Shown here piece after piece: positions 4,333 to 58,295 of a stretch of DNA of 64,000 bases (the stretch's first letter is position 1; every line of letters begins with the position of its first letter). Position numbers and translations under genes: made by a program. The stretch covers positions 12,716 through 76,715 of the forward strand of contig JAGXTJ010000034.1 of assembly GCA_018333655.1 (NCBI GenBank), written 5' to 3'. The DNA comes from Bacillota bacterium (lineage in GTDB: Bacteria; Bacillota; UBA994). The notes under the pieces were generated by a model. The model ran no database searches and had not been told where the DNA came from. It worked only from the letters and a program-made list of their open reading frames with translations.

Positions 4333-4911
4333 ATGAACTGCACTTGGGTCAAAAACAATCTCTGCGACATATTGGACGGTCTACTGCCTTCTGACACTGA
4401 GGAACAGTATCAGGAGCACTTGGCTGACTGTGCTGAATGCCGCATGTTGCTGGCAGAAATTGCTCTCGACCAGCAAGCCTTGACTAGTTTGCCCCGTGTG
4501 TCTCCACCCGCCGAACTGATTGCCGGTGTACTAAGCGCTATTCGCCAGCCTGTAAAAAAAGCTCTCTGGCCATTTTTTGCCCCTCGCTTTGCCCCTGTAG
4601 CCGCCGCGCTAGCGATTATGGTCCTAGGTCTCAATTTCTGGATGGCCTACTTTCCCCATCCGTCAGCGACTCGCGAATCGGCCCTGATTGAGACGCAGAT
4701 GGCGCCGCGCCTGTTTGTGGCCGGAGGCGAGGAACCGGATTCAGAAGCCCCTGCAGCGACGGACAAGAGAATGGGCACAGCATCGCTAGATGCCGCCAGC
4801 GAAAGTGCCCTGCCAGAGCGGCCCTCGTTCCTCCTTGTATCATCTGCGCTCGGTGGCAGTATTTTCGTGGTGTGGGGTGCCATCGTCTTAGTCTGGTATA
4901 AGCGTTCGTAG
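4333..4911 (+). CDS. Anti-sigma factor, zinc-binding ZAS type (RsiW-like), single TM
   Basis: Lies 5 nt after the sigma gene. Has the HxxxCxxC motif (HLADCAECRM), a central TM helix (PVAAALAIMVLGLNFWMAYF), and a C-terminal TM helix. Confidence 0.7.
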   Translation: MNCTWVKNNLCDILDGLLPSDTEEQYQEHLADCAECRMLLAEIALDQQALTSLPRVSPPAELIAGVLSAIRQPVKKALWPFFAPRFAPVAAALAIMVLGLNFWMAYFPHPSATRESALIETQMAPRLFVAGGEEPDSEAPAATDKRMGTASLDAASESALPERPSFLLVSSALGGSIFVVWGAIVLVWYKRS

Positions 4912-4933: not shown

Positions 4934-5013
4934 GCGACAGCGGGGACGGTTCTTTTTGTCGGTTTTTGCGACAAAAAGAACCGTCCCCGCTGTCGTGCCG
5001 TCCCCGCTGTCGC
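4934..5013. repeat. REP-like perfect palindrome, copy 1: 27-bp stem, 7-nt loop, plus a 16-nt partial duplication of the right arm
   Basis: gcgacagcggggacggttctttttgtcg-gtttttg-cgacaaaaagaaccgtccccgctgtcg, then tg-ccgtccccgctgtcgc. Starts 23 nt after the anti-sigma stop. Near-identical copy at 16926-16988. Confidence 0.85.
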
Positions 5014-10702: not shown

Positions 10703-10789
10703 GCCGAAGTGGTGGAACTGGCAGACGCGCTGCGTTCAGGGCGCAGTGAGTGAAAGCTCGTGTGGGTTCGAATCCCACCTTCGGCACCA
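10703..10789 (+). tRNA. tRNA-Leu (anticodon CAG), type II with long variable arm, CCA encoded
   Basis: Acceptor GCCGAAG/CTTCGGC. Anticodon stem-loop CTGCG-TTCAGGG-CGCAG. T-arm GGTTCGAATCC. Ends CACCA. Confidence 0.85.
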
Positions 10790-10817: not shown

Positions 10818-10900
10818 GTCCGAGTGGCGGAACTGGCAGACGCGTACGTTTGAGGGGCGTATGGGAGACCATGTGGGTTCAAGTCCCACCTCGGACACCA
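10818..10900 (+). tRNA. tRNA-Leu (anticodon GAG), type II, CCA encoded
   Basis: Acceptor GTCCGAG/CTCGGAC. Anticodon loop TTGAGGG. T-arm GGTTCAAGTCC. Ends CACCA. Confidence 0.8.
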
Positions 10901-12043: not shown

Positions 12044-12192
12044 GTCGGGGTGCTTCGCGGTTTGTCGCGCTAAAATGCCTCATTTGTCTGAATTTAGCGA
12101 AATGTTTTTTGTCACTAAAGTAACTCCATGGCAGGAACTCACAATATGGGTGTGGTATTCACCCTAAAAGTTGAGACGTGGAGGCGAGTTAG

Positions 12193-13005
12193 ATGCAAGA
12201 ACAGAGTGTTTACTACTGCGTGGTGCACGGAGATCGAAGGGATATGGCCTTTTCTTCGGACCGTGCCAAGCAAGAAATGGTTAATGCCCTGGCGGAGTGC
12301 AAAGCTTTCTCTAGTATCCATGTGTATGCCTTTGCTTTTTTGGAGTCACAAGTCCACCTCGCACTACAGGGCACAAGTAAGGGCTGTGTTGAGGTGGTCT
12401 CTCGGCTCTGTCCGACACGGGCAGGCGAGGGCCTAGGCGCGCGCTTTGAACGACATGTCTGTCATCCCGATCGGCGGCTTCTCACCCTTGCCGCCTACTT
12501 GCACCAGCTACCCGTGCGCTATGGGCACTGTCAGCACCCTAACTTAGCGCGTTATACCAGTCATTCCGCTTACTTGGGCGGAGAGAAATACCCGTTTGTA
12601 GATAGCGCAGCAATGCTCGCCTTACTTAGCCCCGACCGTAAAGAAGCCATTCGTCTTTATCTTGGCCTTTTGAAGAGAGAGGTAAGTCCCGCGGAGCTAG
12701 AGCAGGTATTTTGCCGCGAAGAGAATTCGCGTTCACATAGTGGCGTGCGGCATGTGCCAGATGTATTAGAGGCAATTGCTACGCATATTGAAGAGGTTAC
12801 GGGAGTGGCCCTAAGCATCATGCGCGGCAAGGGGCGCTCTCCACGCGTGGTCGAGGCGAGGCGTCGCCTGATCGCCAGTGCTGTTCTTGAGCATTCTGTC
12901 CCAGTCTCCGAAGTCGCGAAGTACTTGCATGTTCATCACTCCTATGTTTCGCGGCTGACCTTCTCACATTGTGACAGTGTGGGTAACGAAAGGCCTATCG
13001 CCTAA
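12193..13005 (+). CDS. IS200/IS605-family Y1 (HuH) transposase-like protein of the REP-associated (RayT-like) type, with C-terminal DnaA-domain-IV-like HTH
   Basis: SVYYCVVHGDRRDMAF, VYAFAFLESQVHLALQG (HuH motif), AAYLHQLPVRYGHCQHPNLARYTSHSAYLG (the RayT YI-x-NPV-like region). C-terminal LIASAVLEHSVPVSEVAKYLHVHHSYVSRL resembles DnaA C-terminal HTH. No TnpB/second ORF and no IS ends. The matching palindromes at 4934 and 16926 flank the region. Confidence 0.6.
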   Translation: MQEQSVYYCVVHGDRRDMAFSSDRAKQEMVNALAECKAFSSIHVYAFAFLESQVHLALQGTSKGCVEVVSRLCPTRAGEGLGARFERHVCHPDRRLLTLAAYLHQLPVRYGHCQHPNLARYTSHSAYLGGEKYPFVDSAAMLALLSPDRKEAIRLYLGLLKREVSPAELEQVFCREENSRSHSGVRHVPDVLEAIATHIEEVTGVALSIMRGKGRSPRVVEARRRLIASAVLEHSVPVSEVAKYLHVHHSYVSRLTFSHCDSVGNERPIA

Positions 13006-13071
13006 TTGCCTCTAGTGTGGGCATCTCTGCATAGTCTCCCAGTCTTTAGAGAAAAATACCCCTGAGGTCAG

Positions 13072-14631
13072 GTGAGGTCTGTGCGGAAGAAAGTAAGAGC
13101 ATTGCGAAAACCACTACCGGTCAAGGAATTTGCCAAGACTCCCACCGCGGAGGGCTGCTTCAGCGGCCATCTGGCTCATGATTGCGCCGGGTTAAAGGCC
13201 ATTTTGGCCAGCTCTGCCGATCTTAGAGAGCGCTTGTTAACCACCAGTAAAGGCACTCAGGGCGCGGTGCTCTACTTTGCCAATGTGGTCAATCTGCCCT
13301 TTGTCAGCGAATCCATCGTCGGGCCTCTGCAGAGACATGGGGGACGCTCTGACATGGAGTACATAGCGCAGCAGATTGTGCATGTGCCGGAATACAGTCT
13401 TGAGAGCGATCTGCAAAAAGTAGCCTGCGCTTTGTCCGATGGTGCTGTGGCCGTGCTCTTGGCGGGCGAAACATGTGTGCTACTAGTGCCGCTCTTTGCC
13501 ATGGAACACAGGCCGATTGAGCGAGCCATTCAAGAGGATATATTGATAGGCCCACACGAAAGCTTCTGCGAGAGTTTAGGCAGCAACATAGCCTTGCTGC
13601 GGCGCAGGATAGCGACTCCAGATTTTAAAGTAAAGGAACTGACTATTGGTCGTCGCTCGCGCACCACGGTGGCCATTTTGTACTTAGAACGCATTGCAGC
13701 AGCCAAGTTAGTCGACGAAATGGACGAGCGGCTACGGAGCATCGACATCGACTTTGCCTTAGGTATCACCTACTTAGCCGATTTTCTAGAGGACGACCCG
13801 AGGTCTGTCTTCCCTACTCTAAGGTCGACAGAAATCCCCGTCAGGGTAATGGCCGCACTAATGGAAGGGCGCGTCGCGGTCATGGCGGAGGGCGATAGTA
13901 GCGCGCTCATTGCGCCGACCTTTGCTCCAGAGTTCTTGCAGGCCTCCGAAGACTACTTTGACCGACCGATGTCGGGCACGTTTTTTCGCCTTATTAGGCT
14001 GGTGGGTCTGCTCCTCTCGGTTTTTCTCCCTGGCATGTGGATAGCGCTGGTGGCCTTTCACCATGGCATAATTCCGACTCCTCTATTTGACTCTATTGTC
14101 GCGGGCAGAGAGGGTGTCCCCCTGCCCACGGTACTTGAAATATTCGTGCTTATACTGGCCTTTGACCTGATCGTGGAATCGAGCACCAGGATGCCCACCC
14201 GCATTGGCCAGGCGCTTGGTATTGTCGGAGGCATAATTTTAGGGCAGGCGGCGGTGCAGGCGGGCTTAGTGAGCCCGGCCATGGTGATTGTCGCCGCCCT
14301 CACCGGGTTATCAATCTTCACGCAACCCTCTGTCACTTTTCTTTCACCACTACGTTTTCTCAAGTACCCCGTGCTTATCGCTGGTAGCATTTTAGGGGTA
14401 TTCGGTGTAGTCTGGGCACTAATCTATATTTTGATTGCTGTAACATCCTTGCGCTCCTTTGGTTATCCCTACATGTACCCCATAGCGCCCTTTAATTTGC
14501 GGGGGGCGATAGATGTTTTTGTCAGAGTGCCAAAGTTCATGCATCAAAAGCGGCCGTCAATACTGGCCTCGCCGGAGGAGATGCGCATGGACACCCCACT
14601 GCCCCGCCCCACACGCAGGAAAAAGCCATGA
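13072..14631 (+). CDS. Spore germination protein, GerA/KA family (A subunit)
   Basis: 519 aa. Soluble N-domain plus C-terminal 5-6 TM helices. Characteristic GerAA-like segments (VAILYLERIAAAKLVDEMDERL, FPTLRSTE, GRVAVMAEGDSSALIAPT). Confidence 0.85.
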   Translation: MRSVRKKVRALRKPLPVKEFAKTPTAEGCFSGHLAHDCAGLKAILASSADLRERLLTTSKGTQGAVLYFANVVNLPFVSESIVGPLQRHGGRSDMEYIAQQIVHVPEYSLESDLQKVACALSDGAVAVLLAGETCVLLVPLFAMEHRPIERAIQEDILIGPHESFCESLGSNIALLRRRIATPDFKVKELTIGRRSRTTVAILYLERIAAAKLVDEMDERLRSIDIDFALGITYLADFLEDDPRSVFPTLRSTEIPVRVMAALMEGRVAVMAEGDSSALIAPTFAPEFLQASEDYFDRPMSGTFFRLIRLVGLLLSVFLPGMWIALVAFHHGIIPTPLFDSIVAGREGVPLPTVLEIFVLILAFDLIVESSTRMPTRIGQALGIVGGIILGQAAVQAGLVSPAMVIVAALTGLSIFTQPSVTFLSPLRFLKYPVLIAGSILGVFGVVWALIYILIAVTSLRSFGYPYMYPIAPFNLRGAIDVFVRVPKFMHQKRPSILASPEEMRMDTPLPRPTRRKKP

Positions 14632-15714: not shown

Positions 15715-16917
15715 GTGAAAAGAGCCAAAATGCTACTTGTCGTCATTTTAAGCTTGCTCCTCGTTGGGTGCTGGGACCAGCAAGAGATTACCGCCCTCGC
15801 CTCCATTTCAGGATTAGGCTTTGATGTGGGCAGCTACGCCCACACCATGCGTATTTCGGTGTTAACATCACCGCCCCAACCATTCGGGGGTGGAGGTGGG
15901 GGGGGTGGTAGCAGACTGCGTGTTATCACCGTAGAAGCGGCATCCTTTACTGAGGGTATAACATTGCTGCAAGGACATTTGCGCCGCGAGCCGTTTTTTC
16001 TGCATCTCGGCTTTGTTGTCTTTGGCGAGGAGCTAGCTAAGAGCGGGCTCGATGGGGTGCTATCCGCCCTGCAGGGGCGTACGACGATTCGTGGCTCTGT
16101 GCCCGTCTTTGTGGCTCAGCAGACGGCAGAGGAGACGCTTAAGGCTCGCTCGGGGGGTGGGCATGCTCCCGGCGAAGATGTTGCTGATCTACGTGATAAT
16201 TTTGCTACGGCCCCACTAGGTCGCCACGTTAGTATTCACGAGGTGCGTAACACTTTGCTCGCACTGGGTAGTGAGCTAACCTTGCCCATCTTGGAGCTTG
16301 CTCCACTACGACTACAGGCTGGCGACGAAACTCCTGCGACTGGGGTCGGGGTCGCTGGCGAACAACTGCACGAGGTGTTTGTGCGGCGGATGGCTGTGTT
16401 TAGCCGCGACAGATGGGTGGCGGACTTAGATCAGTACTTAGTGCAGACCTTTGTCATGCTTAAGGGGGATACTAGAGTCGGCAGCGCTACCATTGTCGAC
16501 CCCGCCGATCCCACCAGTCATATGGGGCTTACTATTGTGAACTTCTCCGCGCGGTTTGATATCAAGAGTGGCGAAGAAACCGTCGAAATTACCATTTCGC
16601 CTCGCGTGCGGGCGGTAGTGCGCGAGGTTACAGGTACCTACAGCCTGCGAGATAGGGGGTTTGCGCCCATCGCCATGAACTTAGAGCAGGACATAGATCG
16701 CCAGGTACAGCAGGTGGTGGCCTTCTTGCAGGAAAACCAAGCCGATGCCTTAGGGTTTGGTCATATGCTGCGCCGTAGTAATCCCGCGGCGTGGTCTAAG
16801 CTAGAAGATCGTTGGAGCGAGGTTTTTCCGGCGGTGACTGTGCGCGTGAACACCGAGGTGAAAATAGAGGGCACGGCCATGGTGGCCAGATTCTTCGAAG
16901 TTAAGCGTGAGGACTAA
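15715..16917 (+). CDS. Spore germination lipoprotein, GerAC family (C subunit)
   Basis: Lipobox LLLVGCWD. Ger(x)C-like body. Contains a poly-Gly run (GGGGGGGGS). Confidence 0.8.
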   Translation: MKRAKMLLVVILSLLLVGCWDQQEITALASISGLGFDVGSYAHTMRISVLTSPPQPFGGGGGGGGSRLRVITVEAASFTEGITLLQGHLRREPFFLHLGFVVFGEELAKSGLDGVLSALQGRTTIRGSVPVFVAQQTAEETLKARSGGGHAPGEDVADLRDNFATAPLGRHVSIHEVRNTLLALGSELTLPILELAPLRLQAGDETPATGVGVAGEQLHEVFVRRMAVFSRDRWVADLDQYLVQTFVMLKGDTRVGSATIVDPADPTSHMGLTIVNFSARFDIKSGEETVEITISPRVRAVVREVTGTYSLRDRGFAPIAMNLEQDIDRQVQQVVAFLQENQADALGFGHMLRRSNPAAWSKLEDRWSEVFPAVTVRVNTEVKIEGTAMVARFFEVKRED

Positions 16918-16925
16918 TGCACTTT

Positions 16926-16988
16926 GCGACAGCGGGGACGGTTCTTTTTGTCGGTATTTGCGACAAAAAGAACCGTCCCCGCTGTCGC
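16926..16988. repeat. REP-like perfect palindrome, copy 2: 28-bp stem, 7-nt loop
   Basis: gcgacagcggggacggttctttttgtcg-gtatttg-cgacaaaaagaaccgtccccgctgtcgc. Stem identical to copy 1 (4934-4995); the loop differs by 1 nt. Starts 9 nt after the gerAC stop. Confidence 0.85.
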
Positions 16989-25976: not shown

Positions 25977-26007
25977 TTGGCTGCGGCTCTAACCATAGGT
26001 ATTTATA

Positions 26008-26043
26008 GGCTACCCCCACGCTACTCTAGGCGTGGGGGTAGCC
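26008..26043 (+). terminator. Terminator-like perfect 14-bp hairpin after dapL (U-tract replaced by intron insertion)
   Basis: ggctacccccacgc-tactctag-gcgtgggggtagcc. The intron 5' end GTGCG begins 3 nt later at 26047. Confidence 0.5.
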
Positions 26044-26046
26044 TAT

Positions 26047-27913
26047 GTGCGCCCGGCATGGGCGTTATCTCTAGGGTGAAAGTCCCGAACGGTGAAGGTA
26101 GCAGTAACCGTAGCTTAAGGCAAGGGTGTCCGCGGCGACGCGGAATCTGAAGGAAGCCGGCGGCAAACCTCTGGCCCGAGGAACACGAACCTCAAGTGAG
26201 GCTAGCGACAGGTGGATGAGTCTGCATAGTGAGACAAAGTCCTTGCTGCCAAAGTCTGTCGAGAGTAAATGAGGCGGGTAGATGGAGGGAAAGATAGCGC
26301 TCTTACCCGGGGAGACCTGCCAGCGTACCGACTAAGTTGGGAACTCGTACAGCAATGTGCGACTGAGCGGGCAGGAGTCAGCAGAGGCCATAGTACCCGC
26401 CTGCGGGGAAGGGCTGAACATGAAACGAGGTGAGCAAATGACAAGTTCGCGGAAAGAGCAAGGACAGCAGAAAACCCTTAACAGGGGCTCCTCACAGGAG
26501 GAAGTGGTGAATACACAGGGGACTGTGAGAGTGCAGAGCTCTTCCCCGGCACAAGTCAAGAGCTACACCTGCGGGACCGAGTATACCCTGCTGGAAGAGA
26601 TGTTGAAGCTAGATAACATGATGGCAGCCCTCAAGCGCGTAGAGCAGAACAAAGGAGCAGCCGGAGTAGATAAGGTAGACGTAAAATCCCTACGACCCTA
26701 CCTCAAAGAACACTGGCCTCGCATCAGAGGAGAGCTACTAGAGGGAACCTACAAGCCTCAGCCAGTCCGCCGAGTCGAAATCCCGAAATCCGACGGTGGC
26801 ATAAGGCTCTTAGGTATACCCACTCTAGTCGACCGTCTAATCCAACAGGGCCTCTCACAAGTTCTAACGCCAATCTTTGACCCCAGTTTCTCAAACAGTA
26901 GCTACGGCTTCAGGCCGAACCGTAGCACCCACCAGGCAGTCAAACAGGCAAAACAGTACATTGAGGACGGTTACAGGTACGTCGTTGACCTAGATCTGGA
27001 GAAATTCTTCGACCGAGTCAATCACGACATCCTAATGGCCCGAGTAGCCCGCAAGATCAAAGATAAGCGGATACTTGGACTCATCAGAGCCTACCTCAAT
27101 GCAGGAATTATGGCCAAGGGAGTATGCGTAAGAAGTGAACAGGGGGTTCCACAGGGTGGGCCACTTAGTCCAGCTCTATCGAATATAATCCTTGATGACT
27201 TGGATAAGGAGCTAGAGAGAAGGGGACACCGCTTTGTTCGTTACGCCGACGACTGTAATATTTACGTCAAGACGGAGCGAGCAGGGCAAAGAGTCATGGA
27301 GGGCGTAAAGAGATTTGTAGAGGATGAACTAAAACTCAAGGTCAACGAGCAGAAAAGTGCTGTTGACCGCCCATGGAAACGAAAGTTTCTAGGGTTCTCG
27401 TTCACAGCTGAGCGCAAAACACGTACACGTATAGCGCCCAAAGCCCGGGCAAGATTCGAGGACAAGGTGAGGGAACTCACCAATCGTTCGCGAAGCATGA
27501 GTATGGCGAAACGAATTGACCAGCTAAACGTGTACCTACGAGGATGGATGGGATACTTCTGCCTAGCTGACACGCGCAGCGTCATTGAGTCCCTAGACCA
27601 GTGGACTCGGCGACGCCTCCGTATGTGCTATTTAAAGCAGTGGAAGAAACCCAAAGCAGTCTACCATAACCTCGTCAAGCTTGGCCTAAGACCAGACTTC
27701 GCCAGAAACCTCAGTGGCTCAGGCAAAGGATACTGGCGATTAGCCAACACGCCGCAGATGAACATAGCCCTTGGTTTGGCCTTTTGGGCTAACCAAGGAC
27801 TATTGAGTTTGGTTCAGTTATATGACAAGCACCGTAGTGTTTCATGAACCGCCGTATACCGAACGGTACGTACGGTGGTGTGAGAGGACGGGGGTTAGTC
27901 ACCCCCTCCTACT
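26047..27913 (+). mobile_element. Group II intron, bacterial class C-like (inserted downstream of a terminator stem-loop); boundaries approximate
   Basis: 5' GTGCGCC at 26047. Intron-encoded RT ORF in domain IV. Domain V-like hairpin ccgccgtataccgaacggtacgtacggtgg at ~27856-27888. Domain VI-like stem to ~27913. Small size and no En domain in the IEP. Confidence 0.8.
26420..27847 (+). CDS. Group II intron reverse transcriptase/maturase (IEP)
   Basis: RT domains 0-7, including YADD (RFVRYADDCNIYV), and a maturase X domain (LRGWMGYFCLAD). ATG 26420 after GGGGAAGGG; the ORF-track 26357 start is probably too long. Confidence 0.9.
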   Translation: MKRGEQMTSSRKEQGQQKTLNRGSSQEEVVNTQGTVRVQSSSPAQVKSYTCGTEYTLLEEMLKLDNMMAALKRVEQNKGAAGVDKVDVKSLRPYLKEHWPRIRGELLEGTYKPQPVRRVEIPKSDGGIRLLGIPTLVDRLIQQGLSQVLTPIFDPSFSNSSYGFRPNRSTHQAVKQAKQYIEDGYRYVVDLDLEKFFDRVNHDILMARVARKIKDKRILGLIRAYLNAGIMAKGVCVRSEQGVPQGGPLSPALSNIILDDLDKELERRGHRFVRYADDCNIYVKTERAGQRVMEGVKRFVEDELKLKVNEQKSAVDRPWKRKFLGFSFTAERKTRTRIAPKARARFEDKVRELTNRSRSMSMAKRIDQLNVYLRGWMGYFCLADTRSVIESLDQWTRRRLRMCYLKQWKKPKAVYHNLVKLGLRPDFARNLSGSGKGYWRLANTPQMNIALGLAFWANQGLLSLVQLYDKHRSVS

Positions 27914-28014
27914 CGATTCACAGGCGAAATCTTCTTGCCACCAGCAGGAATAATTGTTCACAGGGCGAAGTAAAAGCTAGGACAAGCGAAGTATTTTGGA
28001 GGGGGGATTAAGGC

Positions 28015-58019: not shown

Positions 58020-58245
58020 AGGGGGCCCCCCATGGCTCTGACCCAGTCCCCTCGACCGAAGGACGGTGTCTGCATCGTGGGGGCAGGTCTCCTGGCTCTG
58101 GGATTCGCGCGCCCGGCTCCTTCCCGTCTGCTACTAGAGACAGTGGTCTTGCCGGGTACTACCCATTACAGTGGCGGGACCGCTCAGGACTTTAACCTGA
58201 TTCCCTTTTAATCCCCACAAACGGGGAACCTCCACAAAGGCTATT
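58020..58245 (-). promoter_or_regulatory. Cobalamin (AdoCbl) riboswitch
   Basis: Minus-strand reading contains AAGGGAATCAGGTTAAAGTCCTGAGCGGTCCCGCCACTGTAA (B12 box GCCACTG, + coordinates 58169-58175) and downstream GGGAAGGAGCCGG...CAGGAGACCTGCCC. Matches the cobalamin riboswitch consensus from memory. Confidence 0.7.
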
Positions 58246-58295
58246 TAATTGCACTACAAGTATAGCACATAAGGACATCGCGCAAAAGCTAGTCT

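Follow-up and report, generated by a model that had tools for sequence, protein, structure and literature searches.

The DNA analysed here is a 64-kb stretch of a Bacillota contig (64,000 nucleotides, hereafter the window), which contains two long hairpins with near-perfect or perfect 27/28-bp stems, as judged by sequence inspection. Copy 1 (4934-4996) starts 22 nt past the stop codon of a zf-HC2 anti-sigma gene (4333-4911), itself located downstream of an ECF sigma gene, and copy 2 (16926-16988) starts 8 nt past the stop codon of gerAC (15715-16917), which belongs to a gerA-type operon. In copy 1, the left module (4934-4961, plus strand) is the exact 28-mer GCGACAGCGGGGACGGTTCTTTTTGTCG, which reads cGACAgc-GGGGACGGTTCTTTT-TGTCg and matches the upstream (left-end) module of the RayT elements described below; the plus-strand spacer, or loop, GTTTTTG (4962-4968) separates it from the inverted right module (4969-4996, minus strand), which is its reverse complement with one mismatch at the outermost base (T for C). 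Copy 2 is formed by the same left module GCGACAGCGGGGACGGTTCTTTTTGTCG (16926-16953, plus strand), the loop GTATTTG (16954-16960, plus strand) and a right module (16961-16988, minus strand) that is the exact complement of the left one, the whole doublet being 63 nt long. No more than these two copies occur in the window. An initial annotation, made from the letters alone, had described one palindrome shared by two loci, placed shortly after stop codons, with loops differing by a single nucleotide and with a partial duplication of the right arm at copy 1. All of this is borne out: the 28-nt arms are identical at both loci (with no arm match in 100 dinucleotide shuffles), the loops and the distances to the stop codons are as given above, and copy 1 is followed, at 4998-5013 (plus strand), by a reiteration of its right arm's outer half, CCGTCCCCGCTGTCGC.

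As RNA, the hairpins are predicted to fold at -57 to -61 kcal/mol (z-scores of -9 to -12.7), and the copy 2 doublet has a predicted fold of -39.5 kcal/mol as single-stranded DNA (ssDNA). The lack of a U-tract, which had also been remarked upon, is confirmed, given that neither palindrome is followed by a T-run or called by an intrinsic-terminator scan. Searches against Rfam at gathering thresholds gave no match at either locus, and in E-value mode just generic long-hairpin matches (eukaryotic miRNA precursors), far under threshold, were obtained. Matches to identical proteins assign the window to a Dethiobacter-like lineage of uncultured Firmicutes, which has been assembled repeatedly. The palindromes recur in independent assemblies (the NCBI MAG GCA_018336025.1, JGI, ENA and Logan), and this recurrence of identical sequences rules out an assembly artefact. 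The palindrome is additionally a recurrent assembly breakpoint: short-read contigs of independent samples stop inside it (L006, L013-L016 and L140-L146), the usual behaviour of sequences that are repeated or strongly self-complementary.

Conservation of the copies in position among relatives, which the initial annotation had named as an argument for a gene-specific terminator, is not what is seen at the copy 2 site. In two related species (L148 and L149), the gene order from gerAC to the Germane-domain gene and the conserved downstream spacer are kept and copy 2 is missing, the gerAC-Germane intergenic region measuring 66 and 57 nt in these relatives versus 121 nt in the window. One of the two has no trace at the site, and the other keeps just CGACAGAGGG...TCG, which resembles the outer stem.

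The copy 1 site is also variable, here through the insertion of another element. An insertion sequence (IS) breaks copy 1 within its right arm, after ...GAACCGT, in three independent assemblies, with the empty site present in other assemblies and in the window. This IS is DDE-type; its inverted ends are CAGACTGTG / CACAGTCTG, the C-terminus of its transposase is weakly IS1182-like and it is accompanied by a 4-bp duplication of CCGT (4981-4984 in the window; the junctions in other strains are found in L009-L011 and L139), and its insertion point is the same CCGT where the half-arm reiteration begins. A single event of insertion into copy 1 was seen. The junction in L009-L011 (at about 10650) was considered as a further module copy or as a mis-join, and both were rejected, since L139 (1-300) shows the IS insertion.

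Throughout the family, each arm corresponds to one module of ~27-33 nt, nnxGACAnn-GGGGACGGTTCTTTT-TGTCx'nn, with the consensus nnxGACAnnGGGGACGGTTCTTTTTGTCx' when written out. The module consists of a short stem (xGACA / TGTCx', whose outer pairs co-vary) that closes a conserved loop of 13-17 nt, GGGGACGGTTCTT. Among 150 distinct units, the base before GACA and the base after GTC form a Watson-Crick pair in 125 (43 expected), with all four pair types represented, and the next two pairs further out are likewise above expectation. The covariation test was confined to 57 solitary units, so that the doublet hairpin cannot be the cause of the signal; in these units 75.9% of the cells are paired (versus 64.9 +/- 1.4 in shuffles) and the covariation score is 0.310, against 0.143 +/- 0.016 in shuffled sets (0/500 reach the observed value) and 0.05-0.13 in slid registers. 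Based on this covariation in solitary units, we conclude that a conserved loop closed by a short stem makes up the basic unit, and the window palindromes are two such stem-loop units placed head to head. In the subtype of the window (x = C) the unit stem is just 5 bp long and is predicted to be weak as ssDNA (-3.5 kcal/mol, z -1.1).

The 19-mer core of the module is invariant in our sample by ascertainment (it was used as the query), which overstates its true conservation; partner arms and gene-flanking copies do vary, with AGGGACGG, GGTGACGG, TTCTTTTGTC (four T) and TCTCCTGTC among the forms found. The GTAG tetranucleotide is absent from the 5' end of the module consensus, and CGTC (the complementary strand of GACG) sits inside the conserved loop and not at a terminus.

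Pairs of modules show a marked preference for one arrangement. Within 90 nt of each other, 46 adjacent pairs are in the order plus then minus (as are both window copies), 2 are minus then plus and 16 are direct. The plus-to-minus order is the one in which modules surround the RayT gene, and because the 46:2 ratio of orientations matches the ends of that element, we interpret the doublet as an element remnant with its interior removed, in the manner of a REPIN or a MITE. In 25/130 modules, versus 3/130 in a control window, the minus end is followed closely on its 3' side by a repeat of the outer half-arm or by a full tandem copy, and the same right-end reiteration occurs at the Sporomusa and Petroclostridium RayT elements. 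The extra half-arm of copy 1 is therefore a family trait of the minus end and not a one-off.

The 19-mer core (GGGGACGGTTCTTTTTGTC) has matches in at least 120 unrelated metagenome stretches, where it occurs in single units, in inverted pairs (with spacers of 6-63 nt) and in tandem arrays, on contigs that range from GC-rich to AT-rich; 226 modules (with up to 3 errors) were counted in 790 kb of matched metagenome loci. This abundance, together with the bracketing of RayT genes by modules (see below), upholds the proposal of a dispersed REP/BIME-like palindrome, or minimal MITE, over independently evolved terminators. Additionally, the family is not limited to the two copies of the window, given that the GCGACAGC subtype was seen as a doublet for a third time, here with its right arm decayed, at an unrelated locus (L044) from a sample that contains the source organism. 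When 185,579 species-representative genomes were scanned for an exact 20-mer, 5 single-arm matches and no hairpins were returned; the pattern was narrow (the x'=G subtype makes up ~8% of the units, and the isolates fetched in this work carry the four-T variant) and the collection left out the source genome. The named hosts of the module are Bacillota only. A spread beyond this phylum was considered on the basis of 20-mer matches in Opitutales and Bryobacteraceae and rejected, since these have no GACA stem and are chance or partial matches. A scan of viral contigs gave no matches, leaving phage carriage unsupported.

Concerning genomic placement, 110 of the 164 units in the metagenome loci are intergenic according to crude gene calls, with the remaining 54/164 inside "ORFs". 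When two neighbouring genes are present, the unit lies between convergent genes in 26 cases, between co-directional genes in 35 and between divergent genes in just 5 (5/66). The 3' end of the nearest gene is found at a median distance of 36 nt, and within 100 nt in 77% of the units. Of the solitary units, 25 point the same way as the upstream gene and 17 the opposite way, which is no significant preference (p = 0.28).

In a Pfam census of 173 module-flanking ORFs, Y1_Tnp was found in 4, amid ~290 unrelated families, and a fifth, partial Y1 gene was recovered by tblastn. The complete genes (L023, L038, L104 and L133) have inverted modules on both sides, at 6-54 nt, and the one in L127 does so in part; overall, the module brackets a complete Y1/HUH gene in 9 unrelated loci, 5 of them fetched by protein alone. 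The encoded proteins (250-285 aa, with the HxH and YIHxNPVKAG motifs intact) score 84.3, 84.1, 68.9 and 67.5 bits against the NCBIfam model "REP-associated tyrosine transposase" (NF047646, cutoff 80), and 16.6-18.6 bits against the IS200 model NF033573 (cutoff 55), on which ground membership of the IS200 TnpA family was rejected. In their alignment H60, H62, Y119, N123 and P124 are invariant, and the sole PDB match of the resulting profile is E. coli TnpA_REP (4ER8, E 8e-7). All have a C-terminal extension of ~110-130 aa, with weak Pfam matches (HTH_7/HTH_23 in L023, and PF13560 in some homologues). This RayT family comprises at least 1,568 matches at E <= 1e-10, with existing RayT or REP-associated annotation in Sporomusa, Petroclostridium, Geosporobacter, Desulfitobacteriaceae, Syntrophomonadaceae and others, and most of its protein clusters were seen on one contig each.

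The association was put to a prospective test with five loci from four named Bacillota isolates, chosen by protein alone, and modules were found at 5/5. At these loci the plus module ends 47-64 nt before the start codon and is followed by TTGAC, and the minus module begins at the last base of the stop codon (being displaced in one of them). A substitution-only pattern missed the modules around the isolate RayT genes, and it was an indel-tolerant search that found them. Further solitary and doublet modules are present inside the five 20-kb isolate loci, above the shuffled rate. Two of the loci (L155 and L156) lie in Sporomusa carbonis CP155570, which thus has at least two copies of the gene; their RayT proteins are identical, and over 848 nt their DNA is 99.9% identical. 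The identity starts 2-3 nt outside the stem of the left module, which places the left boundary of the mobile unit at this point, and the two identical copies appear, from their sequences, to be IS-like, unlike the single-copy classical RAYTs. In one of the S. carbonis RayT loci, within an IS-rich region, the right module is displaced by 1.5 kb through an IS256-type insertion with an 8-bp duplication (GAAGTTAG), and this element sits exactly between the RayT stop codon and the right module.

The window has its own RayT-family ORF (12193-13005, plus strand), located between the two palindromes, which is degenerate: HUH is replaced by QVH in its Y1-like N-terminal domain, and a conserved HTH is found at the C-terminus. 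Pfam at 1e-3 gave nothing for this ORF (weak matches being Bac_DnaA_C, E 0.068, and HTH_23, E 0.006, with PF08299 precomputed for 6 relatives), the NCBIfam REP_Tyr_transpos model gave E 3.4e-4, yet 20.5 bits (cutoff 80), and the family profile had no PDB match. In an hhalign comparison, nevertheless, the family of the ORF aligns with the module-bracketed RayTs at 99.6% probability (E 7e-24), the C-terminal HTH being part of the 248 aligned columns, and it is based on this profile-profile comparison that we regard the homology, which is not recovered by Pfam or PDB searches, as real. Across 17 aligned relatives, Q-V-H replaces HUH (one member has HVH), L replaces the N of the Y---NP motif and the Tyr position is occupied by Y, F or H, while the HTH segment VHHSYVSRLT is invariant. 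In relatives, too, the ORF is located after Lactamase_B and DUF3006. No modules were found next to it or to its orthologues, nor anywhere in 47 kb of fetched contigs from relatives that keep the orthologue. Judged by its sequence, the ORF is probably a fixed, non-catalytic RayT derivative, and it is unlikely to be the enzyme that moves the window copies, since the catalytic motifs are lost, flanking modules are missing and the gene is syntenic in relatives whose fetched contigs yielded no module. The "RayT-like gene" of the initial annotation is thus RayT-like by homology, but with QVH and Y---LP, with no flanking modules and in a syntenically fixed position. No catalytically intact RayT was found inside the 64-kb window.

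Two further observations were made around this ORF. About 75 nt upstream of it (window ~12100-12125) there is a sequence, GTTTTTTGTCAC (GTTTTTAGTCAC in L149), conserved in both L148 and L149, which is like the 3' half of the module and could, as a weak suggestion, be the relic of a former upstream module. Additionally, L148 (2201-6394) and L149 (8809-14687) have a 4-6 kb Fe-hydrogenase/NADH-dehydrogenase-like cluster that separates the gerA operon from the QVH ORF; this cluster is missing from the window at 13005-13072, which indicates an indel at this junction.

Given that modules bracket Y1/HUH genes at 9 loci, the window elements look like the two ends of such an element minus the gene. We therefore consider it likely that the palindromes are non-autonomous, REPIN/MITE-like doublets, in which the terminal modules of a RayT/TIRYT-type Y1 (HUH) element are placed head to head and the gene between them is gone. 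The analogy with TnpA_REP and IS200/IS605 suggests an enzyme of the RayT class that would recognise the folded module on ssDNA, would cut beside it, and would then move or copy the doublet in trans; copies would persist where harm is small, that is, just past stop codons. We infer the enzymology, the present mobility in the source genome and the effects on transcripts from that analogy.

The placement just described is also what would be expected of gene-specific transcription terminators, in this case of the anti-sigma gene and of the gerA operon, and both hairpins do lie 8-22 nt past stop codons, share the strand of the gene upstream and have a very stable RNA fold. A terminator, however, would hardly come without a U-tract, uncalled by the scan and with 28-nt arms identical at unrelated loci; two related species have the flanking genes and the conserved downstream spacer but no copy 2, and the module occurs in hundreds of unrelated contexts, including around RayT genes. 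As an account of the origin of the hairpins, terminator function is largely refuted, and we give it next to no credence. A different possibility is that the hairpins are mobile-derived and are kept mainly for a role in the 3' UTR at the RNA level, namely exonuclease protection, an RNase III site or attenuation of read-through (GPI; Germane-domain gene). RNase III cleaves long double-stranded RNA stems, and the 28-bp perfect RNA stems of the window suffice in length for this enzyme; a 28-bp RNA stem probably impedes exonucleases or serves as an RNase III substrate. REPs have been reported in such RNA-level 3' roles (PMC3733652), and the strong bias to positions just past stops, with divergent promoters avoided, agrees with them. 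Selection against disruptive insertions explains this bias equally, though, solitary modules have no orientation bias (25 to 17, p = 0.28, as above) and copy 2 is missing in relatives, and so retention mainly for an RNA role seems unlikely to us.

The modules might instead be double-strand binding sites of the resident QVH/HTH protein, a domesticated, dead RayT that would serve in regulation or in chromosome organisation. Over its full length the ORF is homologous to the module-bracketed RayTs, with the HTH (VHHSYVSRLT) invariant and the catalytic residues lost, and it is fixed in synteny across species, as a host gene would be. Against this, its orthologues persist in relatives without a module in the 47 kb of fetched contigs, and no module lies near the ORF itself, which makes such a function, suggested by sequence features, quite improbable. 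Two more far-reaching proposals, which we regard as doubtful, can be added. In the first, the module would define a REP-like system widespread in Bacillota, whose large RayT subclass (TIRYT/2.1), reported to lack REP-like hairpins, would in fact recognise a stem-loop, with the 13-17-nt loop conserved across genera and the stem co-varying. In the second, independent of it, the lineage of the window would retain its dead, syntenic RayT paralogue, with an intact HTH, so that the host has a DNA-binding factor which would act on the modules or hold them in check.

The system can be compared with several groups of described elements. With REPIN-RAYT systems (Bertels & Rainey 2011, PMC3116915; Nunvar 2010, PMC2817692; TnpA_REP structure 4ER8, PMC3479197) it shares extragenic stem-loop repeats, here dispersed over many metagenome loci and mostly past gene 3' ends, an inverted doublet as the replicating form, a Y1/HUH gene with inverted copies of these repeats on either side and a protein that scores as a REP-associated tyrosine transposase. 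It differs from them in that the module has no GTAG, the defining tag of classical REPs; a short stem and a large conserved loop take the place of a mostly paired palindrome, and the core is common to many genera, whereas classical REPs are species-specific. Additionally, the hosts here are Bacillota and not Proteobacteria, and the RayT has a C-terminal, HTH-like extension and, in S. carbonis, identical duplicates. CGTC-tagged REPs (Di Nocera 2013) were considered and rejected as a match, since CGTC is here in the loop and not an unpaired terminal tag, and an associated transposase exists. The DDE-type IS inside the copy 1 right arm has a counterpart in the use of REPs as IS targets (ref. 12 in PMC3733652).

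The closest described relatives appear to be the TIRtrons/TIRYT (subclass 2.1), with the subclass assigned from protein architecture. TIRtrons are RAYT-like genes flanked by inverted repeats that share GGGGWSAS (Di Nocera 2013, PMC3733652); part of these repeats belong to families of moderate abundance, in which they occur in dimers or clusters, and some are "double palindromic" (PMC3733652). TIRYT has been equated with the TnpA_REP subclass 2.1, with Bac_DnaA_C/HTH-like (HTH_23, HTH_28) C-termini, for which "no REP-like sequences" or secondary structures were reported to flank the genes (Quentin 2018, PMC6006769). The present proteins are likewise Y1 HUH homologues of TnpA_REP with Y---NP and a C-terminal extension that may be of the HTH type, and the module reads GGGGACGG, a 7/8 match to the published motif GGGGWSAS. 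In contrast to what was described, the flanking module here is a co-varying stem-loop, and it is a modest new point of this work that the flanking repeat of a TIRYT-type RayT would, from covariation in the sequences, be such a structure. Subclass 2.1 probably corresponds to the "Group 1" RAYTs, which occur in Clostridia with flanking 16-mers that are modestly abundant (Bertels 2017, PMC5581495); the Di Nocera survey makes no mention of Firmicutes (PMC3733652). Finally, IS200/IS605 elements and their MITE derivatives also have a Y1 HUH enzyme, hairpins at both ends, gene-less two-end derivatives and no obvious long target duplication, but the proteins studied here score 17-19 bits against the IS200 model versus 67-84 bits against the RAYT model, and carry the Y---NP motif and an extra C-terminal domain. 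A literature string search with the core sequence found nothing relevant.

REP/REPIN-RAYT biology is known almost entirely from Proteobacteria, and for the largest HTH-bearing RayT subclass the literature reports no gene-associated hairpin repeats. The module provides a searchable sequence that links a RayT of this kind with a stem-loop repeat dispersed among Firmicutes that form spores or come from gut or digester, accounts for long perfect palindromes that break short-read assemblies and mimic terminators, and constitutes a defined substrate for the biochemistry of RayT enzymes. In annotation, post-stop hairpins of the module type ought to be masked as relics of mobile elements, and calls of terminators or small ORFs at these sites avoided.

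Some other features were observed in the course of the analysis. A second dispersed repeat of ~100 nt (…AGAAGCAAGAGGCAAGACGCAAGAG…TTATTAACCACAGAGGACACAGAGTA…GGAGTTTAGTTGCGCAGTC), from the source organism or its sample, is present in L009 (10680-10780) and twice in L044 (156-291 and 5705-5801), where it abuts the module doublet and gives a BIME-like mosaic. In the window there are two tRNA genes (10703-10786 and 10818-10897, plus strand) and a cobalamin riboswitch (58065-58248, minus strand, 116 bits), all unrelated to the hairpins. The window also contains a group II intron (Rfam D1-D4 and D5-6; 26129-27917), with an RT-maturase ORF at 26357-27847, which lies ~80 nt past a perfect hairpin with 17-nt arms (26005-26046) downstream of an aminotransferase gene, a placement that resembles that of introns targeting terminator hairpins.
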